Of a stretch of DNA of 64,000 nt, positions 3,340-51,035 are shown piece after piece. The notes beneath the pieces are model-generated. The model was not told the origin of the DNA. It worked only from the letters and a program-made list of their open reading frames with translations, and ran no database searches. Position 1 is the stretch's first letter, and each line of letters starts with the position of its first letter. The stretch spans positions 16,159-80,158 of the forward strand of contig JAFXIL010000195.1 of NCBI GenBank assembly GCA_017563185.1, read 5' to 3'. Both the position numbers and the translations under genes were made by a program. This DNA is from Kiritimatiellia bacterium (GTDB lineage: Bacteria > Verrucomicrobiota > Kiritimatiellia > RFP12 > UBA1067).

Positions 3340-4662
3340 ATGGCCACGAACAATGACTTGTTGGCAATAGTGAACTACATCGAGCGCGAGCGCGGTGTGG
3401 ACCGCGAGATTGTGCTTGGCGCAATCGAGAGCGCGGTAACGAAAGCCGCCGTCAGGAACAATCCCGACGTGACGAGAGACCTCCGCGTGGCCATTGACCG
3501 CAAGACTCTCATGCTGCATGTGTACGACACGAAGGTCGTGACCGACGAGGACTTGGGGCCTGGCTACATTTCCGTGGCGCGCGCGCGCCGCATCAAGCCC
3601 GACGCCGCCGAAGGCGAAACTCTTGAGATCGAGATACCCGCCGCGAAGCTTGGGCGCATAGTGGCCGCCGCCACGCGCCAGGGCATCACGGACGCCATCC
3701 ACAACGCGGAGCGCGACAACACTTTCGTTGAATACAAGAACCGCGTCGGCGAGATCGTGAGCGGCACCGTGACGGCCGTGAACCACCGCGACCTCTACGT
3801 GATGGTTGGCAAGACGGAGATGGTGCTGCCCGGCAAGGAGCGCATCCCCATGGAAGAGCACAAGGTGGGCGATTCGATCCGCGCGATCGTGGACAAGGTG
3901 CGCGACCCCGACGACAACAAGGAGAGGCAGCGCGGCGCCTCCTTCAGCGCGCAGAGCCACGCCGTCATGCTCAGCCGCTCCTCGCCCGAGTTCGTGCGCA
4001 CGCTCTTCCGCCTCGAAGTCTCCGAGATCGCCGACGGCGTGGTGGAGATCATGGGCATCGCCCGCGACGCCGGCTACCACACCAAGATAGCGGTGCGCAC
4101 GCACGACGACAAGGTGGACCCCGTGGGCGCGTGCGTGGGCCTGAAGGGCGCGCGCGTGCGCAACATCGTGCGCGAGCTCAACGGCGAGAAGATCGACATC
4201 GTGCGCTGGAGCGACGACATGAAGAACTACGTGACCCAGGCTCTTGCCCCGGCGAAGCTTGAGTCCGTGGAAGTGGACGTGGCGCGCGGTTCGGTGCATG
4301 CCACCGTGGCGCCCAGCGAATACTCCAAGGCCATCGGCAAACGCGGCCAGAATGTGCGCCTCACCTCAAAGCTCACCGGCTGGCATGTGGAGGTGACCAA
4401 GGCCATGTCGCTCGCAAGCTTCGAAGACCAGAAGGCCGAGGCCATCAAGAACCTTGCCGAGACCTTCAGCGTGTCAACCGCTGTTGCAACGCAGCTTGCC
4501 GATGCCGGCTTCCTCACTGTGGACGGAATCGTGGAGAGCGACGAGGAGGGCTTCATCGCGGCTACCGGACTCGACGAGGTCACCGCCAAGGGCCTCTACG
4601 CCGCCGCTCAGGCGGTGGCCGAGCTTACGGCCCAGGCCGAAGAGGAGAACGGCGAGGGCTGA
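3340..4662 (+). CDS. nusA: transcription termination/antitermination factor NusA
   Basis: The N-terminus MATNNDLLAIVNYIERERGVDREIVLGAIESAV is the classic NusA start. S1 and KH regions follow. It is immediately upstream of infB (conserved synteny). RBS agagagga precedes the ATG at 3340. Confidence 0.9.
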   Translation: MATNNDLLAIVNYIERERGVDREIVLGAIESAVTKAAVRNNPDVTRDLRVAIDRKTLMLHVYDTKVVTDEDLGPGYISVARARRIKPDAAEGETLEIEIPAAKLGRIVAAATRQGITDAIHNAERDNTFVEYKNRVGEIVSGTVTAVNHRDLYVMVGKTEMVLPGKERIPMEEHKVGDSIRAIVDKVRDPDDNKERQRGASFSAQSHAVMLSRSSPEFVRTLFRLEVSEIADGVVEIMGIARDAGYHTKIAVRTHDDKVDPVGACVGLKGARVRNIVRELNGEKIDIVRWSDDMKNYVTQALAPAKLESVEVDVARGSVHATVAPSEYSKAIGKRGQNVRLTSKLTGWHVEVTKAMSLASFEDQKAEAIKNLAETFSVSTAVATQLADAGFLTVDGIVESDEEGFIAATGLDEVTAKGLYAAAQAVAELTAQAEEENGEG

Positions 4663-37838: not shown

Positions 37839-40211
37839 TTGGACGGAAGCAGGAAAGATGCGGAGTCTGACGCCGCGCTGTTCATGGACGACCCCAACTG
37901 GGCGGCGTTCATTCCCGACGCCCCGCAGGGCGGGCCGAAGTGCCGGATGGTGCCGCACGAGGACTGCTCGCCGCTGGACGTTGACGCCGTGGTGCGCCAT
38001 CTTGAGAGCGGCGGCATTCTCGGCTCCATGCAGGGATACGAGACTCGCCCAGGCCAGCTTGAGATGGTCCGCGCCGTCACATGCGCGTTCAACGGCAGAG
38101 AGCACCTGATGGTCGAGGCAGGCACCGGAGTTGGCAAGTCGCTTGCATACCTCGTGCCCGCCGTGCAGTGGAGCTTCCTGAACGACACGCCAGTGGTGCT
38201 CTCCACCGCCACGCGAAATCTCCAGAGCCAGCTCATATCGAGCGATCTGCCGCGCGCCGCGAAGACTCTTGGCGACGACGCCGGAAAGTTCCGCGCCACG
38301 GTGCTCAAGGGACGAGTGAACTATCTTTGCCTGCGCGCGCTCGGCGAATACATGCAGGGAGGGTATTGGACGCTCTCGGACGACGAACGCGAGGCGTTCG
38401 ACAAGTTCCTCGGATGGCTGCGCCGCACGGAAGACGGCGACCTGGACGACCTGGGCGACGAGGAGATGCGCGCGCGCCTCTCGTGTCCAAGCGAGGACTG
38501 CGCGGGAAGGACGTGTCCGTTCCGCGCAAAGTGCTTCGTGGCCAAGGCCCGCGCCCGCGCCCGCGAAGCGCATGTGGTGGTGGTGAACCACGCGCTTGTG
38601 CTTGCGGACTCCGAGAGCGCCGGCTCGGAGCTTCTGCCCGCGTACGGACGCATCGTCTTCGACGAGGCGCACAACCTCGAGGACATAGCAACGGAGTTTC
38701 TTTCGTACGAGCTTTCGCGTCCCGCCCTCGCCCGGCTTCTCGGCAGGCTGGCGCGTCCTTCCCGGTCGCGGCGCGGCCCCGGCCGCACGCGCGGCGTCTT
38801 GGGCGCGGTGGAGCGCCAGCTGCAGCGCGGCGCGTTTCCGAACAAGGACGCCGCCGTCGAGGCTCGAGAGCTTCTCACGAAGACGCATGTGCAGATGCGC
38901 TTCGTGCAGAGCGCCGGGGAGGCGCTCTTCGCGGTGCTGGAGCGCCTCTTCTCGCCCGCTCCGAAGGAGAGCGTGATACGCTTCCGCTGCGTTCCGCAGA
39001 GGCAGTATTCGCTGAGGGGGCTTTTCGCGGACTATTCGCCTGCGCAGTGGAGCGAGGAAGAGCTCTTGAACGCGGGCATTGCGTTCGAAGACGCGCTGGC
39101 GCGCCTTCAGGGATGCGTGTTCGACCTCGCCGAGGCGCTCGCGGCAGCCTCGCCAGGCGTGCCGCAGCAGGACGATCCCTCAGCGCAGATCAAGGCCGTG
39201 GCGGATTCGATCAAGGACTTCATGCTGGAGAGCAAATTCATCCTCAGCTCAAGCGATCCGTCGCGCGCCTACTGGGCGGAGCGCCGCCCCGGCAGCGCCC
39301 GCGCCCGCCAGGGCGCGTACGTGCGCCTTGTGGCCGCGCCTCTCTCGGTCGCGGGCGAACTGAAGAAGCGGTTCTACGACGCCAAGGACTCCGTGGTGCT
39401 CTGCTCCGCCACGCTGCGCGCCGGCGACAAGTTCGACTACATGGCGAGGAAGCTCGGCGTGTCGCTCGTTGAGGCGGGGCGCGTCCGCTCGCTCGTGGCG
39501 GCCTCGCCGTTCGACTACCTTCGCCAGGCCTGCGTGCTCGCTTGCGACTTTCTGCCCGACCCCTCGGCGAACGCCGTCGAATACGGCGCCGCGCTTGTGG
39601 ACGTGCTGCGTGACGTCTTCGTCGCCACCGATGGACGAGCCCTCGTTCTCTTCACCGCATACGAGATGATGCGCGCCGTCGCGGAGAACGTGCGCGCCCC
39701 CCTTGAAGAGGCTGGGATGGATCTTCTCGTGCAGGGCGACGGCCTTTCGCGCGAGGGCATGGTGGCCGCCCTCAAGAAATGCGGCGCCCCATCGAAGGGA
39801 AAGCGCGCGCGGCGCGTGGTGCTTTTCGGCGCGCAGTCGTTCTGGGAGGGGGTGGACGTGCCAGGCGAGGCGCTCAGCTGCGTGGTGCTGGCGCGTCTGC
39901 CGTTTCCGCAGGTGGGCGAGCCGATCGTGGAGGCGAGAAGCGACCGCATCAAGGAGAACGGCGGCTCGCCGTTCCGCGACTACATGCTGCCCGAGGCGAT
40001 CATCCGCTTCCGCCAGGGATTCGGACGCCTTGTGCGCACGAAGCGCGACAGGGGAGTCGTGGTGGTGACCGACCCAAGAGTGGTCACGAAGAACTACGGC
40101 GCGATGTTCCGCAAGGCGGTGCCCGCGAGCGTTCATTCCGTGCCGACTCTGGCGGAGCTCAGCGCGCGCACCGCAGCGTTTCTGCACGTGGAGCCTAAGA
40201 GCCTCATTTGA
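37839..40211 (+). CDS. dinG: DinG/Rad3-family ATP-dependent DNA helicase (Fe-S type)
   Basis: Walker A is EAGTGVGKSLAYLVP, and the DEAH-like motif is FDEAHNL. The Fe-S Cys cluster is CLRALGE…SCPSEDCAGRTCPFRAKCF. A C-terminal helicase_C_2 domain is present (VLFTAYEMM…GSFWEGVDVPGEAL). It is 790 aa with a probable TTG start. Confidence 0.85.
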   Translation: MDGSRKDAESDAALFMDDPNWAAFIPDAPQGGPKCRMVPHEDCSPLDVDAVVRHLESGGILGSMQGYETRPGQLEMVRAVTCAFNGREHLMVEAGTGVGKSLAYLVPAVQWSFLNDTPVVLSTATRNLQSQLISSDLPRAAKTLGDDAGKFRATVLKGRVNYLCLRALGEYMQGGYWTLSDDEREAFDKFLGWLRRTEDGDLDDLGDEEMRARLSCPSEDCAGRTCPFRAKCFVAKARARAREAHVVVVNHALVLADSESAGSELLPAYGRIVFDEAHNLEDIATEFLSYELSRPALARLLGRLARPSRSRRGPGRTRGVLGAVERQLQRGAFPNKDAAVEARELLTKTHVQMRFVQSAGEALFAVLERLFSPAPKESVIRFRCVPQRQYSLRGLFADYSPAQWSEEELLNAGIAFEDALARLQGCVFDLAEALAAASPGVPQQDDPSAQIKAVADSIKDFMLESKFILSSSDPSRAYWAERRPGSARARQGAYVRLVAAPLSVAGELKKRFYDAKDSVVLCSATLRAGDKFDYMARKLGVSLVEAGRVRSLVAASPFDYLRQACVLACDFLPDPSANAVEYGAALVDVLRDVFVATDGRALVLFTAYEMMRAVAENVRAPLEEAGMDLLVQGDGLSREGMVAALKKCGAPSKGKRARRVVLFGAQSFWEGVDVPGEALSCVVLARLPFPQVGEPIVEARSDRIKENGGSPFRDYMLPEAIIRFRQGFGRLVRTKRDRGVVVVTDPRVVTKNYGAMFRKAVPASVHSVPTLAELSARTAAFLHVEPKSLI

Positions 40212-40393: not shown

Positions 40394-42805
40394 ATGAGAG
40401 AGATGTTTCCAGTTGAGAGGATAATCCCGGCAGTGGCCGCCTCGCTCGAGCGGAACCGCAGCGTTGTGCTGCGCGCGCCGCCCGGAAGCGGCAAGACCAC
40501 ATGCGTACCGCCGGCGCTTCTCGACGCGCCGTTTCTGAAGGGACGCAAGATCCTCATGCTCGAGCCGCGGCGTCTCGCGGCGAGAAGCTGCGCCGCCTTC
40601 ATCGCCCGCCGCATGGGCGAGGCGGTGGGCGACACTGTTGGATACCAGGTGCGCCTTGAGCGCAAGGTTTCGGCCCGCACGCGCCTCGAGATCGTCACGG
40701 AGGGTCTGCTCGCGCAGAGGCTCGTGTCGGATCCCGAGCTTGCCGACGTCGGGCTTGTGATCTTCGACGAGTTCCACGAACGTTCCCTGCAGTGCGATCT
40801 CGGGTTCGCGATGGCGCTCGACGTGAGGCGCGCGCTGCGCGAAGACCTGCGCATCCTCGTGATGTCCGCAACGCTCGACGTGGAGTCTGTTGCCGCCCAC
40901 ATGGGCGATGCCGACGTCCACTTCGCCGAGGCGCGCATGTTCCCGGTCGAGACGCGCTACCTGCAGGTGGAGTCGCTCGCGCCCATATCGGCACAGATGG
41001 CCGGCGCAGTGCGGCGCGCGCTAGCGGAGCCTGGCGGCGACGTTCTCTGCTTCCTGCCCGGCGAGGGCGAGATAAGGCGCTGCCAGGAGGAGCTCTGCGA
41101 CGACGCCGCGTCGCTCGGCGGCGCGGAGGTGCTGCCGCTCTACGGCGCGCTCCCGAAGGAGGCGCAGGACCGCGCGGTGGCGCGCCGGACGCCAGGCGAC
41201 GGCGGGGCGAGGCGGGTGATCCTCGCCACATCGATCGCCGAGACCTCTCTCACAATCGATGGCGTGACAACGGTGATAGACTCCGGCCTGATGCGCGTTA
41301 GCAGGTTCTCGCCAAGTTCCGGCATGAGCCGCCTAGAGACGCTGCGCCTCACGCGCGACAGGGCCGACCAGCGGCGCGGACGCGCCGGACGCGTTGCGCC
41401 GGGCGTGTGCCTGCGGCTCTGGACCGAAGCGCAGGACCGCCAGCTGCAGAGCGCCATGCAGCCCGAGATAATGGACGCCGATCTCGCCCCCGTCGTGCTC
41501 ACCGCCGCCACATGGGGCACGACGGCGCTGGACGGCCTCCCCTGGCTCACGCCGCCGCCGTGGTCCTCCTGGGAGAATGCGAAGTCCCTGCTCCGCTCTC
41601 TCGGCGCGCTCGACGGAGAAGGGCGCATCACCGAGCGCGGCCGGTCGATGGCCCGCCTCGCCGCTCATCCCCGCCTCGCGAACATGATGCTGCACGACCG
41701 CCGCTCCGCCTACTGGGCCGCCATTCTCGAAGAGGGCTCGCGTTCGCGAGAGACGGACATCTCGCGGATACATCCCACACCGAGAATGCTCGAGCTCGCA
41801 CGGCGCTGGGGATGGCGGCGCGGCGACGATCCGCCCGATCCCGCAGCGCTTGCATACGCTTTCCCCGACCGCATCGCCCGCAACCGCGGCAACGGCACGT
41901 TCCAGATGACGTGCGGACGCGGCGCGTTCATGGACCGTGCCGAGGTGCTTTCCTCCTCGCCGTTTCTAGTCTTGTGCGAGCTGGACGACCGCGGCGGCGA
42001 TGCCAAGGTGCATCTTGCCGCGTACATCGGCCTTGACGATATTGAGAGCATCTTCGCCGATGAGATCACCGAGGGCACCACAACGGAATGGGATAGGCGC
42101 GCCGAGGCGGTTAAGGCCGTCCGCCAGACGAGGCTCGGGAAGATGGTGATCGAGGAGGGCGGCCAGTCTAGTCCGCGCGAGGAGGACGTGCAGGCCGCGC
42201 TCTTTGCGGGCATGCGCCAGAAGGGCGTGGCGAACCTGCCGTGCTGGACGCCCGGTCTGCGCCAGCTTCAGGCGCGGATATGCTTTCTCCACCGCGTTCT
42301 CGCGGATGAGGCGTGGCCTGACGTTTCGGACGCGGCGCTTGAGGCTCATCTTGAGGCTTGGTTTGCAGGGTTCACGCTCGGCATGAGCCGGTGGGCGCAT
42401 CTTGCGAAGCTCGACCTTGCGGCCGTGTTCGACTGCGCGCTCGCTGAGGCGGGGCTCGACAGGCGCGCGCTCGACAGGCTTGCTCCTGTGAAGATGCAGG
42501 TGCCTAGCGGGTCGATGATGACGATCCACTACGAGGAGGACGAGCCGTTCGTGGCGGTGCGTCTGCAGGAATGCTTTGGGCTTCTCGCCACGCCGAAGGT
42601 GGCGGGTGGGAGAGTGCCGATCGTGATGCGGCTACTTTCGCCGGCGCAGCGTCCCGTGCAGGTGACTAAGGATCTCGAGGGCTTCTGGAAGACGAGCTAC
42701 GCGCTTGTGCGCAAGGACATGAGGGGCCGCTATCCAAAGCACTACTGGCCGGAGGACCCGTCAATCGCCGAGCCCACCCGCCGCGTGCGGCCAGCCAGGA
42801 GCTAG
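40394..42805 (+). CDS. hrpB: ATP-dependent RNA helicase HrpB
   Basis: Walker A is PPGSGKTT. Further markers are DEFHERS (the DEAH box), SATLD, and the HrpB-specific C-terminal domain. It is about 800 aa. Candidate starts are the ATGs at 40394 and 40403 and a TTG at 40388. Confidence 0.9.
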   Translation: MREMFPVERIIPAVAASLERNRSVVLRAPPGSGKTTCVPPALLDAPFLKGRKILMLEPRRLAARSCAAFIARRMGEAVGDTVGYQVRLERKVSARTRLEIVTEGLLAQRLVSDPELADVGLVIFDEFHERSLQCDLGFAMALDVRRALREDLRILVMSATLDVESVAAHMGDADVHFAEARMFPVETRYLQVESLAPISAQMAGAVRRALAEPGGDVLCFLPGEGEIRRCQEELCDDAASLGGAEVLPLYGALPKEAQDRAVARRTPGDGGARRVILATSIAETSLTIDGVTTVIDSGLMRVSRFSPSSGMSRLETLRLTRDRADQRRGRAGRVAPGVCLRLWTEAQDRQLQSAMQPEIMDADLAPVVLTAATWGTTALDGLPWLTPPPWSSWENAKSLLRSLGALDGEGRITERGRSMARLAAHPRLANMMLHDRRSAYWAAILEEGSRSRETDISRIHPTPRMLELARRWGWRRGDDPPDPAALAYAFPDRIARNRGNGTFQMTCGRGAFMDRAEVLSSSPFLVLCELDDRGGDAKVHLAAYIGLDDIESIFADEITEGTTTEWDRRAEAVKAVRQTRLGKMVIEEGGQSSPREEDVQAALFAGMRQKGVANLPCWTPGLRQLQARICFLHRVLADEAWPDVSDAALEAHLEAWFAGFTLGMSRWAHLAKLDLAAVFDCALAEAGLDRRALDRLAPVKMQVPSGSMMTIHYEEDEPFVAVRLQECFGLLATPKVAGGRVPIVMRLLSPAQRPVQVTKDLEGFWKTSYALVRKDMRGRYPKHYWPEDPSIAEPTRRVRPARS

Positions 42806-43854
42806 TCGTCCAGCTCCACCGACGTGGCGGCATCGGGCGCTGGCAGATCGCCACCGGCCTCCACCATGGTCGCCGCGTTGTACACGGCGTCCCAGGTCTG
42901 CAAGCGCGCCTCGCGGTCCTTCACGAGCATGTTGGCCACAAGATGCGCGAAGCCGCGCGAGAGCTCGGGCGCGAGCTGGCGGGGGTCTGGAGCGTGCGCC
43001 ATGGGGTCCACGTGCGCGCGCAGGATTTCGTCGTTGTCCATCAGCGGAAAGAGCATGCGGCCTGTGGTGAGGTGGTAGAGCGCGGCGCCGAGGCAGTAGA
43101 TGTCGGCCCGGCAGTCGAGCTCCTTGTCGCAGTATATCTGCTCTGGGCTGATGTATGCCGGCGTGCCGATCACCTCTTCCTTCTCGTCGTAGCGGTGCAT
43201 CACGGCGGTGGACTGGCAGAGGCCGAGGTCCATCACCTTCACCGTGCCGTCGCGGTCCACCATTATGTTCTCGGGCTTTAGGTCGCAGTGAACGATGCCG
43301 AAGAGATCCCACGCGTACTTCATCGCGTCGGCCACCGACTCGCAGACGATGAGCGCGTCCGACTCGGAGATGCGCTTCTTGCGGTTCTGCAGCGAGCCGA
43401 ACGTGTAGCCGTCCACATAGTCCATGATCAGGTAGTATCGTCCGTCAACGCAGTCCGCGCCGTAGCCCTGCACGATGCCCTGGTGGTGGAGGTCCGTCAT
43501 CATGCGCACCTCCGACATGAACTGGCGGATGTCCTGCCCGGTGGCTGTGAACTTTTCGTCCAGCACCTTCACGGCCACGAAGCGCTGCAGCTCCTTGTGC
43601 CATGCGCGCCACACAACGGCCATCCCGCCGCGTCCGACGATCGCGTCGAAGCGCAGGAAGGGGAGGTTGGGGGGAGTGTCGCGCGAGATTTTCTTCACCA
43701 CGCGCGTCTGCTGCACGGCGTCTGGCTCTGGGGATGGGATGCCGATCTTCGGGCGAAGCACGACGTGGGCGTTGGAGGGCCGCTTTGCGAAGCGGTATTT
43801 GCGGCGCGGCGCATCGCCGTCCGCCGCAGGGGGTGTGTTGTCTGCTGCTTCCAT
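42802..43854 (-). CDS. Ser/Thr protein kinase (Hanks-type), cytoplasmic
   Basis: Motifs: VAVKVL (the VAIK-like Lys), HCDLKPENIM (the catalytic loop), DLGL (DFG-like), and GTPAYISPE (the APE-like activation segment). It is 350 aa. Its ATG overlaps the stop of the upstream zinc-finger gene (TAATG), and its stop overlaps the convergent hrpB stop (CTAG). Confidence 0.85.
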   Translation of the reverse strand: MEAADNTPPAADGDAPRRKYRFAKRPSNAHVVLRPKIGIPSPEPDAVQQTRVVKKISRDTPPNLPFLRFDAIVGRGGMAVVWRAWHKELQRFVAVKVLDEKFTATGQDIRQFMSEVRMMTDLHHQGIVQGYGADCVDGRYYLIMDYVDGYTFGSLQNRKKRISESDALIVCESVADAMKYAWDLFGIVHCDLKPENIMVDRDGTVKVMDLGLCQSTAVMHRYDEKEEVIGTPAYISPEQIYCDKELDCRADIYCLGAALYHLTTGRMLFPLMDNDEILRAHVDPMAHAPDPRQLAPELSRGFAHLVANMLVKDREARLQTWDAVYNAATMVEAGGDLPAPDAATSVELDD

Positions 43855-44455
43855 TAGCGCTTCTCCCTCTTGGGCGTTCCGCCCTGGCCATGGCACTTTC
43901 TGCACACCACGCCGCCCCTGCCCATGCAGTCGGGGCATACGATCTTGCCTATGCCCGAGCATCCGCCGCACGGCGTCACCAGCATCTTCGCGTACTTCAT
44001 GGACGATCTCATCCCCGCGGTGGTGGTCTTCTGCGAGACGATCCATCCCGGCTTTCCGTTCTTGTTGCCTCCTCCGCTCTGGCACTTGCGGCAGGCCTGG
44101 TATCCCGTGCCATGGCACTTGCGGCAGGCCGTCACGCCGGCCCACCTGCATTCGGGGCATGCGTCCAGTCCATTGCGCTCCTCCTCTGGCGGTGCCTTCA
44201 CGAACAGTCTGTACGTCTCGTGACGGCCAGTGCCGGAACACAGCGGACACGTCTTGTACTTCACGTCGAAGCGGTGCGTGGTGAACGGCTTGCCCGGGGT
44301 GACGCCGATTTCGCCGTCGTACTGCCCGAGGTTGGGCGGAGTGAGGGATAGCGAGCGTTTGCCTCTGCAGGCGGCGCATGGCGACGACTGCATTGTGGGC
44401 TCGGCGAAGAGCGCTACGACGGCGGCGATTGCGAAGACGAACGTTGCTTGCGTTT

Positions 44456-44459
<4 letters not shown>
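43854..44459 (-). CDS. secreted Cys-rich zinc-finger protein with DnaJ-type CxxCxGxG repeats
   Basis: It has a signal peptide (MKTQATFVFAIAAVVALFAEP). At least 7 CxxC pairs are present, several as CxxCxGxG (CPLCSGTG, CRKCHGTG, CGGCSGIG, CRKCHGQG). Its start overlaps the stop of the response-regulator gene (ATGA). Confidence 0.6.
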
Positions 44460-45811
<1,352 letters not shown>

Positions 45812-45840
45812 TTACTTCCTTGTTAGGTTCATTCCTATGA

Positions 45841-46272
45841 TCAAGTATCGTCGGTAGTCATCCACCCCGGCTTGATTTCCTCTGCCATTGCGCATACAAG
45901 TGCAGCTGGACCGTATCCGATTCTGTCGGCCGCTTTCATCGCCTCTAATGCCTTCATGGGGTCTTTCTTGCAACCTTGTCCCATGCCTAATCTGATTCCC
46001 TTTTCATAAAGCATTTTCCCATGGTTGTACATTCCCGTGTTTACATGATTCATCCTGCTTCCGCGGTTTTCAGCGTCCTTGATCACGTTACTTGTCGCCA
46101 TTGCAGAAAGAAAGATCATTGATACGGTGACAGAGAGCTGTAGCCTCCATGACAGGGCACGTATCACGCGAAGAAGTGCGCGCGAACAGTCGGAACCGCC
46201 GTACCAGTCGGCAGCGATCTTGTTCTTAAGCTCTTCGAGGATGGAGAATGGATATTTCACTGTTGTGCCCAC
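45841..46272 (-). CDS. small Sel1-like repeat protein (tentative; GTG start; low-GC segment)
   Basis: 143 aa. The C-terminal half (GMYNHGKMLYEKGIRLGMGQGCKKDPMKALEAMKAADRIGYGPAALVCAMAEE) fits a Sel1/TPR-like repeat. GC is about 50% against about 68% for the genome. It is tightly spaced between the lipoprotein gene and the RR gene. Confidence 0.4.
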   Translation of the reverse strand: MGTTVKYPFSILEELKNKIAADWYGGSDCSRALLRVIRALSWRLQLSVTVSMIFLSAMATSNVIKDAENRGSRMNHVNTGMYNHGKMLYEKGIRLGMGQGCKKDPMKALEAMKAADRIGYGPAALVCAMAEEIKPGWMTTDDT

Positions 46273-46280
46273 GGCATCTT

Positions 46281-47072
46281 TTAATGCCTTTCTTTCTTTG
46301 CTTGAGGTAAATCTTTTTCCATCTCGCTTGGCAGTTTGCCAAGTACAGACTTTACATGTGACACAATAGCGGCTCGTTGCTCTAGCGTAAGACGGTGGCT
46401 TATGGAATGATATATGTGGTTGATTCTGCGAAGCTGGCTGTCTTCTTCCAGGCCCATTTCCTTTTTGAAATGTTCAAGTCGTCTATATTGTGTTGACTGA
46501 CGTCTATCGTTCAGGTTTAATCCAGGCATTGCGCTATCTGCCGCAGTTGCAGCTTGTCGTTCTTTTAGTATTACGTCCAGTAGTATGTTCCACCCCTCTA
46601 TTTTTTCTGGATTACGGAAGAATATGGTGAGCGCAGCCCATTGGCTGATATTCCATTGGTTACGCAAACGAACCTCAAGTCGATTATGTTCCTTTTCCTC
46701 TCCTTGAGCGTCATGTTCAATGTCGAAAGAAATATTCGTAGCGGCTTTAACGTAAATGCCGCTCAGAATTTCATAGAGGTTGGTCTGGGAATCTGCCGTA
46801 GCTTCCTTGCATAAATCATATGCTAGACTGTAGGAGTCGCATCCTCTAGCATCAAGCATTCCTGCTAGTTGCTGAACGCGAGTTTTAAATTTCTCTATGG
46901 CGTTACGCGAATCATCATTTTCTTCTTTTTGCGATGTAACTTGCTCGTGATGAGGCATTGCAACATTGCTCTTGATATCACTACGCTCTCTGCCGTCGCG
47001 ACATCCAACAACTACAGCAATCAGGCAGATGCTGAAGGATAGTGCCTTATCCCGTAATCCAAAGATGCTCAT
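46281..47072 (-). CDS. hypothetical lipoprotein (low-GC segment)
   Basis: The signal peptide carries a lipobox (MSIFGLRDKALSFSICLIAVVVGC). The 263-aa body is charged with no recognisable domain. Its ATG overlaps the stop of the upstream 876-aa gene (ATGA). Confidence 0.5.
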   Translation of the reverse strand: MSIFGLRDKALSFSICLIAVVVGCRDGRERSDIKSNVAMPHHEQVTSQKEENDDSRNAIEKFKTRVQQLAGMLDARGCDSYSLAYDLCKEATADSQTNLYEILSGIYVKAATNISFDIEHDAQGEEKEHNRLEVRLRNQWNISQWAALTIFFRNPEKIEGWNILLDVILKERQAATAADSAMPGLNLNDRRQSTQYRRLEHFKKEMGLEEDSQLRRINHIYHSISHRLTLEQRAAIVSHVKSVLGKLPSEMEKDLPQAKKERH

Positions 47073-49699
47073 TCTGGTAATCTCCCTGTTGTTATGATGG
47101 TGTTTGTACCGCGGATTACGTAATGTCCTGCCTTGATCACGCCAGCAGAGCCGTTTGGCAGAATTGTAAATTTCTGCTGCTCTGGAACTGCATTGGTTCG
47201 GGCTGGCATAGAGTCTCCGATCGTATTATGCTCATTCCACCCTAGTGGAATTGACCATATTATCACACCCTCCTGCCATCCGAACGAAACATCGTTTGTA
47301 AGTACGCCGTCGGGCGTCATTGGCTTAAGTATTCTGGAATTAGATGCTTCGTCCTCAAGCATGAAGAGATTGTCGTCACCTATGTTGAGCCACTCTCCGG
47401 CATGGTGGTCAGTTGTATGCGCCCATTCATCTGAGAATTCCTCGTTGCGAAAATATCCACTTACACCGCCTTCGGTGGTTGGTATCTCTTGCATGGCAAT
47501 GTTTCCGAAAGACACAGTGCGTGGGGCAATATACAGTTCTAGGAGCATACCTACGCCGCCAGCTTCGTTTTCGCCCAATCCAAAGTCAATTTTAGTTACT
47601 CGAGGACAATAGTATTTTCTCGGCTCTAGAATCATACAAGTAGTTTGGTAAGACTCATTGTTGACAGAAATTGTAAGAATACACTCGCCACCCTCTAAAG
47701 GAGCATGGAAGGAATGCGCGGTGTTCCTTAATGCAGAAATGGTCCCCTTGTTGACGTTCCAAGTGGCAGTCAATGATTTAGGCCAATGCCAGCAGGCAAC
47801 TTCTTCTTTTATCCCATAAATGTGCCTGCTCGTATTGCCGTCCAACGGCGCACTACGTATAGCCTCAAGTTGAACCTTGACTGTCGTTGCAGATGCCGAG
47901 TCTGACACAACTTCCAACAGAGACGGGGTGAATGCCGCGTTCACTATGATGTCGTCTGCTGCATCGCTGTGCCGTGCCGCTTCATAATCCACGGCAAACG
48001 ACATGCTACCTCCTGATGGAATCATTGCCATGTAGGGGAAGTGCAGATTGGCCCCGCCAGTTCGGACGAGTTGGTCAATATTCTGCGCTGTCAAGAGTAG
48101 CATGCCGCCGGTTTCTCCACCGTACACCGAGACTGAAAGAGTTGTGCTGGTGGATCGGCGCGCCACAACGTCATTCGGTGCATTCGTGTATGCGTCTTCA
48201 TAGAATACAACCGGCTTGTCAAAATCCACCGAGACGGACGCGGGCAGCTGCGGCATGCCTGGAAAGCCCGATCCAGCCGCAGCACATCCACACCACAACG
48301 ACGGTACGGCGAAAACCGCGCCTTCGAGCGTATATGTTCCGTCAATGGAAGTTCCGCCGCATTCGCAGTTGTCGCATCCCGTGAACCCAATCCAGTTGCC
48401 GCTGGCGACGTATGAACATGACGAGCCACCCGACAAAAGGCGGGGCCCGACACTGCCGCCAAATCCCGGCGTCCACGAGAATGCGCCGCCAGGATCGAAC
48501 GGCTGAACGCCGACGGCGTATCCGCCATCGTCAGGCGAGAGGTCGAACGAGAGCGGCCACTTGACTGTGAACGAGCGTCCGTCGTTGAGTCCATTTATGG
48601 TCACGACCGCGTTGCTGGGCGCTGACACGGAGAATGGCTCCGTGGATGTCACTATGTACTCAACGCCCATCAAAAGCGGAACATGGTTTGTCTCGCCGCC
48701 TCTGGCGATGACTATGGGCGAACCGAGATGAGATTCGCGGTCGGCGTTGAAGCAGATCGGCACAGGACCGCGATCCACCACGACGTCCACGAAGTAGTAG
48801 GCGTTCGTGTTCACAATGTCGGCGCATACGACATTGTACCATTCCTCGTTCGTCCCGTGCGCATCAGGTCCCGCAACGAGCGGCTCCGGGTCGAGGGTGT
48901 TTTCAAGGCCATCGTTGTCCCAGTCGAATGGAAACGCCGGTGCATATTCAACTGTCTGATTTTGATAGCGATACGCAAAGCGTCCGTCAGAGAAGAATTC
49001 CGCCTGGAAGTTGGTTATGCAGCTAACATCGCGGTTCACCGGCGAGTTCTCCCATGTGACGATCAGCGAGTTAGACGGCGATGTCGCATGCCAGAACACG
49101 TTTGAGACGCCGCCCGGCAGGAGATGCCAGTTGAACGCCGGCACCACGGCAAGCGGCGCTTCAAAAGGCGACGGAAAGTAGCATGTGCGCAGAGTCGGAC
49201 GAAACTCGCATTTGGAGAACACGGCCATTCCCTCGAGAAATCCCTCGCGCCATGGGAATGACCAGCCGACAGAAGGAATGCGCATCACATCTTCAAATCC
49301 GCCTCGCACGAGCCACGGCTCGTATGTCTGTGGCGTGCCGAAGGCATCACGCGCCACGATCTCACAACCCTCGCGCGTCTCAGCCACGCGCCAGCTGTTG
49401 GTAATGTCCGCGTCGGCAATTGGAAGCGCGATGTTCCCAGCATTGCGGTCACGCGGGACGCGTGACCCTACTGACCCTACCATGTTTGGCGGATCATTGG
49501 TGTACTTGGCGAAACCCTTGTACACTCCCGTTGCCGCCATCGCGCCCAGCAGCAGCGCCAAAACAAAGTTGTGCTCCTTCACAAGCCACGCAAGCGCATT
49601 GACGCGATTCCACACGAACCACGCCACAGCAACCGCAACACACACTCCCAGCAGTGCATGCAGTACATCTGGCGGCAAGGGATGGAGCATTTTGCACAT
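47069..49699 (-). CDS. large membrane-anchored protein of unknown function (two N-terminal TM helices; Cys/Gly-rich middle; compositionally distinct C-terminal third)
   Basis: 876 aa. TM1 is LHALLGVCVAVAVAWFVW and TM2 is FVLALLLGAMAATGVY. A DxDxDG-like acidic motif (FDWDNDGLENTLDPEP) is thrombospondin-type-3/calcium-binding-like. A Cys cluster (CSYVASGNWIGFTGCDNCECGG…CGCAAAG) follows. Codons about 1-530 are high-GC; the remaining ~340 codons are about 50% GC. The ATG at 49699 abuts the HK stop codon with a 0-nt spacer. Confidence 0.6.
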   Translation of the reverse strand: MCKMLHPLPPDVLHALLGVCVAVAVAWFVWNRVNALAWLVKEHNFVLALLLGAMAATGVYKGFAKYTNDPPNMVGSVGSRVPRDRNAGNIALPIADADITNSWRVAETREGCEIVARDAFGTPQTYEPWLVRGGFEDVMRIPSVGWSFPWREGFLEGMAVFSKCEFRPTLRTCYFPSPFEAPLAVVPAFNWHLLPGGVSNVFWHATSPSNSLIVTWENSPVNRDVSCITNFQAEFFSDGRFAYRYQNQTVEYAPAFPFDWDNDGLENTLDPEPLVAGPDAHGTNEEWYNVVCADIVNTNAYYFVDVVVDRGPVPICFNADRESHLGSPIVIARGGETNHVPLLMGVEYIVTSTEPFSVSAPSNAVVTINGLNDGRSFTVKWPLSFDLSPDDGGYAVGVQPFDPGGAFSWTPGFGGSVGPRLLSGGSSCSYVASGNWIGFTGCDNCECGGTSIDGTYTLEGAVFAVPSLWCGCAAAGSGFPGMPQLPASVSVDFDKPVVFYEDAYTNAPNDVVARRSTSTTLSVSVYGGETGGMLLLTAQNIDQLVRTGGANLHFPYMAMIPSGGSMSFAVDYEAARHSDAADDIIVNAAFTPSLLEVVSDSASATTVKVQLEAIRSAPLDGNTSRHIYGIKEEVACWHWPKSLTATWNVNKGTISALRNTAHSFHAPLEGGECILTISVNNESYQTTCMILEPRKYYCPRVTKIDFGLGENEAGGVGMLLELYIAPRTVSFGNIAMQEIPTTEGGVSGYFRNEEFSDEWAHTTDHHAGEWLNIGDDNLFMLEDEASNSRILKPMTPDGVLTNDVSFGWQEGVIIWSIPLGWNEHNTIGDSMPARTNAVPEQQKFTILPNGSAGVIKAGHYVIRGTNTIITTGRLPE

Positions 49700-50851
49700 T
49701 TATGTGAGGCTCCTGACGCGCTTTTCGAGGCGGGGGACAATTACGGTGAACTTGGTGCCTTCGCCTTCCTTGGACTCCACGTCTATGTCGCCGCCGTGTG
49801 CGCGTGCGATTCTGCGCGAAAGCATCAGGCCAAGGCCCGTTCCCTGCTTCTTCGTGGTGCGGTACGGCTCGAAAAGCGCAGCGACGGCGCTTGGCGCCAT
49901 GCCAGCGCCTGTGTCGCGGAACGACACTGTGACGGAGTCGTCGCTGGAATCGAGCGCGATCGAAAGTTCGCCGCCGTCCTTCATGGCCTCGAGCGCGTTC
50001 TTCACGAGGTTGAAGAACACCTGCTCCATCTGCGCGCGGTCGAGGGCGACTAGCGGAAGGGCGGGTGGAAGGTCGAGGGTCACGCGTATGCGGCGGCTCT
50101 CGATCTGCGGCTTGAGAGTCTCGAGTGTGTCGCGAAGGGGATCAGCAAGCGAGCCGGGCACCAGGTTGGGGCGAACGGGACGCATCGCCTCGAGGAAGCC
50201 GCGGTTGATGTCGATGATGCGGCGGATCTCGTTCTGGGCGGTCGCGACGTCTGCGAGCAGGCGCTCACGCCGGGCGGAGTCCGATTCTTTGCGGAACTCG
50301 CGGGCCATGAGCTGGAGGTTCATTGAAAGGGCGTTTAGCGGGTTGCCGATCTCGTGCGCGAGACCGGCGGCAAGGTCCTGGATGGCGTCCGTGCGCTCGC
50401 TCTCGCGCGCGTCCGCCGCGCGCGCGTGCTCCCCTGTGACATCGCGGATGATCACGACGACGGCGTTGCCGTTGGGAAGGGAGCCAAGCTCGAGTATGCG
50501 GCGCTCGGGGTAGGCGATCTCGATCTCGCAGGAGGCCTTGCGCGCCCAGCCTGCGCCCTCGGCTGAGGGGTTCAGCAGACGGTCCCAGTCCCAGCCCGGC
50601 AGCATGTCGCGTATGGGCTTGCCGCGCCCGCGCGAGAAGGGACATGCCGCCAGACGCTCGGCAATGCTGTTGGAATACATCAGCATACCGCTAGAGTCTA
50701 TCACGAGCACCCCCTCCGAAAGCGTGTTGAAGACTGACTCCAAAAACCCGATTTCGTTGGCAAGGGCCTCGAACTGATGACGACGATCTGCCGCATCGAG
50801 CTTGTCGATTCGGTCAGCGACTTTCTTGAAAAATTTCTTCATGTGCGCCAT
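49700..50851 (-). CDS. cytoplasmic PAS-domain sensor histidine kinase (NtrB-like)
   Basis: It has no TM segment. A PAS-like region is present (LSEGVLVIDSSGMLMYSNSIAERL). The H-box is LAHEIGNPLNAL. The N, G1 and G2 boxes are LVKNALEAM, DTGAGM and GTGLGL. It is 383 aa and is the first gene of the operon. Confidence 0.85.
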   Translation of the reverse strand: MAHMKKFFKKVADRIDKLDAADRRHQFEALANEIGFLESVFNTLSEGVLVIDSSGMLMYSNSIAERLAACPFSRGRGKPIRDMLPGWDWDRLLNPSAEGAGWARKASCEIEIAYPERRILELGSLPNGNAVVVIIRDVTGEHARAADARESERTDAIQDLAAGLAHEIGNPLNALSMNLQLMAREFRKESDSARRERLLADVATAQNEIRRIIDINRGFLEAMRPVRPNLVPGSLADPLRDTLETLKPQIESRRIRVTLDLPPALPLVALDRAQMEQVFFNLVKNALEAMKDGGELSIALDSSDDSVTVSFRDTGAGMAPSAVAALFEPYRTTKKQGTGLGLMLSRRIARAHGGDIDVESKEGEGTKFTVIVPRLEKRVRSLT

Positions 50852-50878
50852 TTAGTCCCAATGAAACCATTTGGCACA

Positions 50879-50887
50879 ATTATATCA
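50879..50887 (-). promoter_or_regulatory. extended -10 element TGaTATAAT on the minus strand, ~36 nt upstream of the histidine-kinase ATG (putative operon promoter)
   Basis: The reverse complement of 50879-50887 is TGATATAAT. This is the same TGATATA(A/C)T core seen at 24456 and 25628. Confidence 0.4.
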
Positions 50888-50962
50888 TTTTCTAGCTTGC
50901 AGTTCAATAGTGGATTTACATCGATTTAAAATGCCGGAGTTACTCAAAAAAGCGATTCTCTA

Positions 50963-50991
50963 TTGACGCGCGTTTAGCACAATGGTATGAT
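50963..50991 (+). promoter_or_regulatory. putative sigma70 promoter (-35 TTGACG, 17-nt spacer, -10 TATGAT) for the metallophosphoesterase gene
   Basis: TTGACG at 50963-50968 and TATGAT at 50986-50991. RBS aaggagagg precedes the ATG at 51036. Confidence 0.4.
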
Positions 50992-51035
50992 ATGGCGTGA
51001 TTTTTCAGACGGCAACGAGCAAGGAGAGGCATATA

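Follow-up and report, generated by a model that had tools for sequence, protein, structure and literature searches.

A string of tightly packed genes in a Kiritimatiellia bacterium raises the question of why a PAS histidine kinase (HK) and an NtrC-type sigma-54 response regulator (RR) are separated by three genes for envelope proteins, and whether the whole string is one signalling device. The string lies on the minus strand of a 64,000-nt stretch of DNA (hereafter the window; assembly GCA_017563185.1, contig JAFXIL010000195.1, positions 16,159-80,158 of the forward strand), to which the positions below refer. It encodes, in order, the HK, an 876-aa protein, a 263-aa lipoprotein, a 143-aa product, the RR, a secreted zinc-finger-like protein (ZnF) and a Hanks-type Ser/Thr kinase (STK). 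A first-pass annotation, made from the letters alone, had placed these seven open reading frames (ORFs) and described their six junctions, and our reading of the sequence agrees with it on every one. The stop codon TAA of the HK gene directly abuts the ATG of the 876-aa gene, the 876-aa and 263-aa genes overlap in ATGA, an 8-nt gap separates the 263-aa and 143-aa genes, a 29-nt gap containing AGGAAG lies between the 143-aa ORF and the RR gene, and the RR/ZnF and ZnF/STK pairs overlap in ATGA and TAATG, respectively. The explanation that we consider likely is that a strain-variable cassette of envelope genes rides in a conserved four-gene signalling operon, with the HK/RR overlap as a multi-allelic slot and the cassette not serving as the sensor of the kinase.

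The window was compared with contigs fetched from relatives (denoted by locus labels such as L001, L091 and L178), using a set of 159 HK-anchored loci (79 from genomes and 80 from metagenomes) onto each of which all seven proteins were mapped. The named relatives are metagenome-assembled genomes of Kiritimatiellae, and the samples came from rumen and gut. The first-pass annotation had proposed to look at the gene neighbourhood of HK and RR orthologues; these are adjacent and free of the cassette in 133 of the 159 loci, including L009 and L092 (97% HK protein identity), with the RR starting in the HK stop codon or at most a few tens of nt beyond it and mostly in an ATGA overlap. Where a genome locus extends far enough downstream, the STK follows in 49 of 62 cases and a recognisable ZnF in 31 of 62. 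The adjacency of HK and RR and the frequent presence of STK and ZnF identify HK-RR-(ZnF)-STK as an operon conserved among Kiritimatiellae of gut and rumen, and the three envelope genes lie outside this conserved unit. The split of the HK/RR pair by envelope-protein genes is thus real, and the link between two-component system, ZnF and STK, which had been described as a hybrid two-component/Hanks-kinase module, is indeed conserved across gut Kiritimatiellae; what does not hold is its extension to an integrated seven-gene system. Four loci with a Kiritimatiellae-type operon (L016, L021, L063 and L064) carry the labels Lachnospiraceae, Clostridiales, Lachnospira hominis and Azospirillum, and are probably mis-binned.

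Alignment with the empty sites of L009, L092 and L176 places an insert of 3,895 nt (45808-49702, minus strand) inside the ancestral ATGA formed by the HK stop and the RR start. The empty site of L092 and L176 reads CTCAC-ATGA-AACAATCG (given also as CTCAC-ATGA-AACAATCGATTCTC). In the window, the left junction is CTCACA-TAAATGT-GCAAAATG and the right junction, 3.9 kb further on, is AAGGAAG-TAAATGT-TGAAACAATCGATTCTC (right flank also given as TGAAACAATCG), which puts TAAATGT at both ends of the insert (49702-49696 and 45814-45808). The insert changes the HK stop codon from TGA to TAA and turns the ancestral ATG of the RR gene into TTG behind a new ATG, which is why the RR now starts with Met-Leu. 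The new ATG is supplied, together with the Shine-Dalgarno-like AGGAAG, by a relic of the 3' end of a 503-aa gene (CTAACAAGGAAGTAAATGT; 45808-45826, minus strand), which is also present in L178. The first-pass annotation had recognised this AGGAAG as a ribosome-binding site in the 29-nt gap, and the motif is there, but it comes from the coding end of the 503-aa gene. Domain searches found no transposase or integrase in or beside the operon, and the cassette ends carry no terminal inverted repeats. The insert does not have the features of an insertion sequence or transposon, as none of its three ORFs matches Pfam or NCBIfam and the inverted repeats are missing, nor those of an array of integron cassettes, as we found no integrase domain and no attC-like inverted repeat, only the 7-mers TAAATGT and, in a different allele, TGAAACA.

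The contigs of members of the 90%-identity cluster of the HK reveal several states of the HK/RR junction. State A is the empty ATGA site (L009, L092, L176, L177 and L179-L181). State B differs from it by a single TAAATGT (ATAAATGTTGAAACAATCG) and has an RR that starts with Met-Leu (L171-L175); it was recovered on five contigs from five different samples, and the flanking synteny of L171 is that of the window. State C is the cassette with the 876-aa gene (p876 cassette), found in the window, in L001 and L002, and in L091 in a form that is about 1.05 kb longer. State D is an unrelated cassette encoding a 1123-aa TSP3-repeat protein and a 216-aa protein (L178, with the same synteny as the window); it is bracketed by TGAAACA, and its end is the AACAAGGAAGTAAATGT-TGAAAC relic that the window also has. 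State E has a different sequence after the HK stop that resembles the right-end relic, on a contig that stops after 20 nt (L038). The corresponding junction k-mers are diagnostic of the empty site (CTCACATGAAACAATCG), the footprint (CTCACATAAATGTTGAAAC), the p876 cassette (CTCACATAAATGTGCAAAATG) and the TSP3 cassette (CTCACATGAAACAGCTGCGCG). At the C-terminus of the 216-aa protein (L178:12594-13244) stands IPEPSSALLLLVGGAMLALMRGKVV, which scores 19.0 bits as a PEP-CTERM sorting signal, just short of the threshold of 20.7.

The backbones of alleles B, C and D are 96.4-97.6% identical to that of the window. The empty-site alleles all belong to a sister backbone, with about 95% identity in the HK gene, 89% in RR-ZnF-STK, and different flanking genes. 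The junction behaves as a multi-allelic slot that holds the same cassette with or without a deletion, an unrelated cassette, or a 7-nt footprint. The inserts of the window and L091 are 99.3% identical, whereas their flanks are only 95.3-98.3% identical, which suggests recent exchange between strains; judging from the sequences, the most plausible route would be homologous recombination by way of the conserved genes for HK and RR. State B matches the product predicted for a deletion between the 7-nt repeats. The simplest history has one insertion in the ancestor of a species-level clade, followed by internal deletion, exchange of cargo, and near-complete deletion between the 7-nt repeats.

A second lineage carries inserts at the same position. 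Most loci of a clade whose HK is about 64% identical have HK and RR side by side, but three (L023, L117 and L105) have inserts whose first gene starts in the ATGA overlap. The insert of L023 encodes a 1059-aa TSP3-repeat protein, a 202-aa protein and a 299-aa protein, and its junction is identical in L101. That of L117 encodes a 1156-aa TSP3 protein that is 59% identical to the large protein of L023 over about 730 N-terminal residues, while the C-termini are unrelated; the C-terminus of the L117 protein has a HEIGH zincin-like motif, with reprolysin matches below threshold. The insert of L105 consists of two small genes. A distant homology of the large L023 protein to the 876-aa protein was considered and dropped, since BLASTP and hhalign give weak similarity in the N-terminal anchor only. 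The 299-aa protein (L023:15114-16013), at the RR-proximal end of its insert, has no signal peptide and a D...ExK-like motif (GIDHYTEHVLFEFK); its homologues or remnants flank p876-type cassettes in two unrelated loci (L088:89-343 and 3651-4159; L090:7150-7413). It could be a nuclease tied to cassette turnover or to neighbouring restriction-modification genes; as a mobility nuclease it was rejected, having no family match and no PDB sequence match.

The cassette of the window encodes proteins without any match in Pfam, NCBIfam, PADLOC or PHROGs; the PADLOC result means that none of the three matches a model of a known anti-phage defence system. The 876-aa protein (47069-49699, minus strand) consists of an N-terminal hydrophobic helical hairpin, a chain of immunoglobulin (Ig)-like beta-sandwiches and a diverging C-terminal third of low GC content. 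Its AlphaFold2 (AF2) model (pLDDT 80.4) shows the helical hairpin followed by the beta-sandwich chain, and its fold matches are Ig-like domains of surface proteins only. None of the at least 174 relatives is annotated, and most are full-length; the family alignment reveals six conserved cysteines and an invariant acidic motif, FDWDxDGxENxxDPxP, which is TSP3-like although the Pfam model does not detect it. A scan of viral contigs with the family alignment found no relatives. Residues from about 100 to 550 are conserved, and the last third is divergent and mosaic; for one relative (P0004), identity is 79-93% over this stalk and 28-35% over the head. The GC content of the last third and of the gene that follows is 0.44-0.55 in each of the eight loci examined, against 0.58-0.65 in the flanks. 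Low GC is therefore a trait of the family and no proof of a foreign donor, and recent transfer from a low-GC donor was dropped as an explanation.

The gene downstream of family members always encodes a very fast-evolving protein of about 225-295 aa with a signal or lipobox N-terminus. In the window this partner is the 263-aa protein (46281-47072, minus strand), whose assignment as a lipoprotein is supported by an invariant VGC lipobox; its fold is all-helical, with matches to generic helical repeats only. The third ORF (45841-46272, minus strand; 143 aa) is the truncated 5' part of the 503-aa gene, which is intact in L091 and of which it retains the first 142 codons or so. It had been labelled Sel1-like, a name that is marginal for this remnant, with a single stretch that scores 13.8 bits against the 30.7 required by PF08238; phmmer aligns residues 84-125 with true Sel1 proteins at E-values of 3.5e-8 to 5e-4, which amounts to at most one Sel1-type repeat.

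Nine other contigs also carry the pair of 876-aa protein and partner; none of them has an HK or RR in the vicinity, and the settings are unrelated, including ETF-alpha/ETF-QO, restriction-modification and glycoside hydrolase genes. In two genomes the cassette lies between the genes for ETF-alpha and ETF-QO, and in three it adjoins restriction-modification genes (GmrSD and an EcoRI methylase; SNF2/PLD and an MmeI-type enzyme; a DNA methylase and HNH). Coordinates of such cassettes are L004/L005:6052-12448, L090:7147-12200, L007:2151-12560 and L089:3088-9510. A family of secreted proteins of about 190-200 aa is often encoded upstream of the large gene.

A mechanism that would account for these observations begins with an accessory cassette that, in this species-level lineage, appears to have landed precisely in the ATGA where the HK stop and the RR start overlap. 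The cassette seems to lack a promoter of its own and would be transcribed by read-through from the sigma-70 promoter of the operon, for which there is a good candidate 28 nt upstream of the HK start: TTGAAC-17-TATAAT with a TG extension (50879-50907, minus strand), which matches the consensus at 10 of 12 positions. The first-pass annotation had noted the extended -10 element (TGATATAAT), which we can pair with a -35 element, TTGAAC, at a distance of 17 nt. Inside the seven-gene string the minus strand carries no convincing intrinsic terminator, and a single transcript with translational coupling, as proposed there, is plausible in view of one strong promoter-like site and the stop/start junctions. 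Those junctions (TAAATG, ATGA) would keep RR, ZnF and STK translated downstream of the cassette. Homologous recombination, with the conserved HK and RR genes serving as arms, would carry alleles from strain to strain, and a deletion from one short terminal direct repeat to the other would remove a cassette; the window itself has a p876 cassette with an internal deletion of about 1.05 kb. The predicted product is an envelope complex of a membrane-anchored Ig-like stalk with a diversifying head and a cognate, co-varying lipoprotein. As far as the sequences tell, the cassette proteins are probably under diversifying selection for surface interaction with phage, host or competitor rather than sensors of the HK.

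Several points weigh against this account. TAAATGT is absent from the empty site, so that the repeats are not a simple target-site duplication. Both the read-through transcription and the coupling are what we infer from sequence. The topology of the 876-aa protein may pose a difficulty: with two transmembrane (TM) helices and the N-terminus inside, the bulk of the protein would be cytoplasmic. Finally, the inserts at the exact overlap in the 64% lineage hint at a position favoured by mechanism or selection and not at a neutral accident. This last point leads to an alternative that we regard as possible but doubtful, namely that the overlap is a preferred, selected acceptor for surface-protein cassettes that are co-expressed with, or controlled by, the sigma-54 system and are its outputs, not its inputs. 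It would explain why at least two, and probably three, independent types of cargo are found at the exact overlap in two lineages (window/L091; L178; L023/L117/L105), with no comparable inserts at the RR/ZnF or ZnF/STK junctions, and why the first inserted genes are all co-oriented and start in or beside the HK stop. The large cargo proteins are moreover alike in the layout of their N-terminal anchor (hydrophobic helix, basic RRL-type loop, hydrophobic helix), and two cassettes are bracketed by 7-nt direct repeats (TAAATGT and TGAAACA). Yet no recombinase or att-like structure was found, the anchor layout is all that the proteins of different cassettes have in common and the similarity is weak (hhalign probability 3%, E 0.013), and p876-type cassettes also reside elsewhere, as at ETF-alpha/ETF-QO and beside restriction-modification genes. 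The repeated inserts may reflect a mechanism or selection for co-expression, or the junction may simply be the only site in the operon where an insert does no harm. A stricter version, in which the overlap is a dedicated acceptor site where modules of a large, N-terminally anchored surface protein with a diversifying head and its cognate small envelope protein enter, are swapped and are excised at the 7-nt repeats, seems unlikely to us; if true, the surface repertoire of a strain would be expressed under one sigma-54 two-component/Hanks-kinase system, with an integron-like logic that dispenses with the integron integrase.

The cargo could also be read as polymorphic effector/immunity-like modules for competition between strains, made up of a conserved N-terminal stalk for delivery, a C-terminal head that varies and acts as effector, and a cognate lipoprotein that protects. 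The conserved N-terminal part and mosaic C-terminal third of the 876-aa family, the unrelated C-termini behind a shared N-terminal region in L023 and L117 (one of them with HEIGH), the low GC of head and partner gene in every locus, and the very fast evolution of the partner gene all suit this idea, and conserved N-terminal plus variable C-terminal domains are a hallmark of polymorphic toxins. A recognisable C-terminal toxin domain and a linked secretion route are missing, however: the matches are to Ig-like beta-sandwiches only, and there are no secretion-system genes near the examined cassette loci. For the p876 family, a toxin with a swappable tip is further weakened by the fact that most members align to the C-terminus, and we consider the idea as a whole improbable. 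Still less can be said for the proposal of the first-pass annotation that the soluble HK has the cassette proteins as its accessory sensors in a QseE-QseG-QseF-like system extended by a Hanks kinase, that is, a seven-gene device with the 2-TM protein or the lipoprotein as signal input. The order of HK, envelope proteins including a lipoprotein, and sigma-54 RR does resemble qseEGF (PMC6075780), the junctions are tight, and the HK has no membrane sensor domain of its own. We nonetheless judge this proposal very unlikely: HK and RR dispense with the cassette in 133 of 159 loci, strains with the same backbone have it swapped or cut to a 7-nt scar while HK, RR, ZnF and STK remain intact, neither an HK nor an RR lies near the relatives of the 876-aa protein and lipoprotein on nine other contigs, a cytoplasmic HK cannot reach a periplasmic lipoprotein as QseE does, and the third cassette gene is truncated in the window. 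An assembly chimera, in which a low-GC block was mis-joined into the operon, would fit the sharp drop in GC to 0.43-0.50 at 45.8-47.9 kb against about 0.64 in the rest of the window. It can practically be dismissed, since the same arrangement was found independently in ENA, Logan and NCBI/JGI assemblies (L001, L002, L091) and is therefore not an assembly artefact, the low GC is intrinsic to the gene family in eight of eight loci, the reading frames are intact and the junctions are precise. The strain-variable cassette in a conserved operon thus stays our preferred reading.

The identities of the PAS kinase, the NtrC-type regulator and the Ser/Thr kinase given in the first-pass annotation are upheld by Pfam. 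The HK (49700-50851, minus strand; 383 aa), first gene of the conserved core, has PAS_4 (27.2 bits), HisKA (34.7 bits) and HATPase_c (93.8 bits), the latter two above their cutoffs, and combines HisKA and its H-box with HATPase_c as is typical of HisKA-type sensor histidine kinases. Translation and Pfam agree with the earlier statement that it has no TM segment; there is no hydrophobic stretch, and the N-terminus leads directly into the PAS domain. The RR (44456-45811, minus strand; 451 aa) has the receiver, AAA+ and Fis-type helix-turn-helix (HTH) domains of NtrC-family sigma-54 enhancer-binding regulators, all above their cutoffs (Response_reg 86.8, Sigma54_activat 243.2, HTH_8 47.7 bits), with GAFTGA and Walker A intact in the translation. 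RR and HK also show sub-threshold similarity to PrsR and PrsK, regulators of the PEP-CTERM system. The ZnF (43854-44459, minus strand; 201 aa), found in many orthologous operons and lacking from others, starts with a signal-peptide-like stretch, contains eight CxxC motifs and scores 24.6 bits against DnaJ_CXXCXGXG (PF00684; cutoff 32.7). The STK (42802-43854, minus strand; 350 aa), last gene of the core, is a soluble Hanks-type kinase (Pkinase 157.9 bits) with the catalytic-loop and activation-segment motifs of this class (VAVK, HCDLKPEN, DLG and SPE in the translation), and matches only generic kinase models in PADLOC. A mechanically derived ORF around it (42802-44379, 525 aa) continues upstream and crosses the ZnF gene in a different frame; gene callers choose the start at 43854, which is kept in relatives.

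Some observations concern the surroundings of the operon and its relatives. The region between the HK gene and a divergent gene for a 589-aa Metallophos protein (50852-50996) is AT-rich (GC about 0.45), with one promoter-like site on the minus strand (50907-50879) and one on the plus strand (50963-50991). A scan of the window for sigma-54 promoters gave fewer matches than expected by chance, namely a single one with 1 mismatch (38132-38147; TGGCAAGTCGCTTGCA) where 2.0 were expected. The whole window (1-64000) contains no tRNA genes and no Rfam family at the gathering threshold. An HK lineage with about 60-62% identity (L031-L035, L057, L107, L109 and L110) has no RR after the HK; a convergent gene, GH5-like in L031, lies within a few nt of the HK stop, and this lineage represents either an operon broken at the same HK/RR boundary or an orphan paralogue. 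An 8-kb gap between RR and ZnF in L036 was rejected as a further cassette, as its contents are housekeeping genes (topoisomerase, chromate transporter).

The locus, whose alleles are empty, occupied, exchanged or reduced to a footprint, is a natural multi-allelic cassette slot in a translational-coupling overlap and lends itself to asking how operons tolerate or exploit insertions and to strain tracking in metagenomes. The 876-aa family and its co-varying lipoproteins look like determinants of surface diversity at the strain level, and the HK-RR-(ZnF)-STK operon is a defined target for studies of crosstalk between two-component systems and Ser/Thr kinases in an almost unstudied phylum; a literature search for sigma-54/STK systems of Kiritimatiellota found nothing specific. 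The comparative data also correct an attractive reading, in that the cassette is not part of a new seven-gene signalling machine.

The statement in the first-pass annotation that no described system has this gene order overlooks qseE-qseG-qseF of E. coli (GlrK-YfhG-GlrR), which encodes an HK, a lipoprotein and a sigma-54 RR of the NtrC family in this order (PMC6075780, PMC12691602) and is the closest described system to the locus in gene order. QseE, however, sits in the membrane and binds QseG through a periplasmic loop, whereas the HK of the window is soluble and has no such loop; qseG is a conserved member of its operon, whereas the intervening genes of the window are strain-variable and missing from most orthologous loci; and the RR scores 363.6 bits against the 763 required by the GlrR/QseF equivalog of NCBIfam. 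The best NCBIfam matches for the C-terminal half of the HK and for the full RR are AtoS/AtoC and ZraS/ZraR. The RR shares the REC-AAA+(GAFTGA)-Fis HTH architecture of AtoC and ZraR, but no score comes near its equivalog cutoff (AtoC 472.6 vs 714; AtoS 207.4 vs 646; ZraR 407.9 vs 760), and the window differs from AtoSC and ZraSR in that its HK has no membrane or periplasmic part and its conserved partners are a zinc-finger-like protein and a Hanks kinase.

The 876-aa protein shares its string of Ig-like beta-sandwiches with invasin/intimin, the S-layer proteins SbsC/EA1, PrgB and the MG domains of alpha-2-macroglobulin; compared with TSP3-repeat proteins, it has one invariant TSP3-like acidic motif, and the alternative cargo has true TSP3_bac repeats. 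In a superficial likeness to integron cassettes, the cargo is co-oriented, apparently promoter-less and apparently read from an upstream promoter, with 7-nt repeats at its boundaries and alternative cargo at the same site; unlike them, it comes without an integrase or attC palindrome, its repeats (TAAATGT/TGAAACA) do not resemble the GTTRRRY core, and there are several genes per cassette. The locus resembles horizontal-transfer hotspots and variable surface-structure loci such as those for capsule or O-antigen in that unrelated sets of surface-protein genes occupy one position between conserved flanks, closely related strains have different alleles, similarity is higher in the cargo than in the backbone, and the cargo has low GC. 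It differs from them in that the slot is a 4-nt stop/start overlap within a signalling operon and not an intergenic region, that the cargo is co-oriented and translationally abutted, and that a 7-nt footprint allele exists. Hotspots with conserved flanks are already known; what is unusual here is the location in a 4-nt overlap of a signalling operon, combined with an uncharacterised family of envelope proteins.

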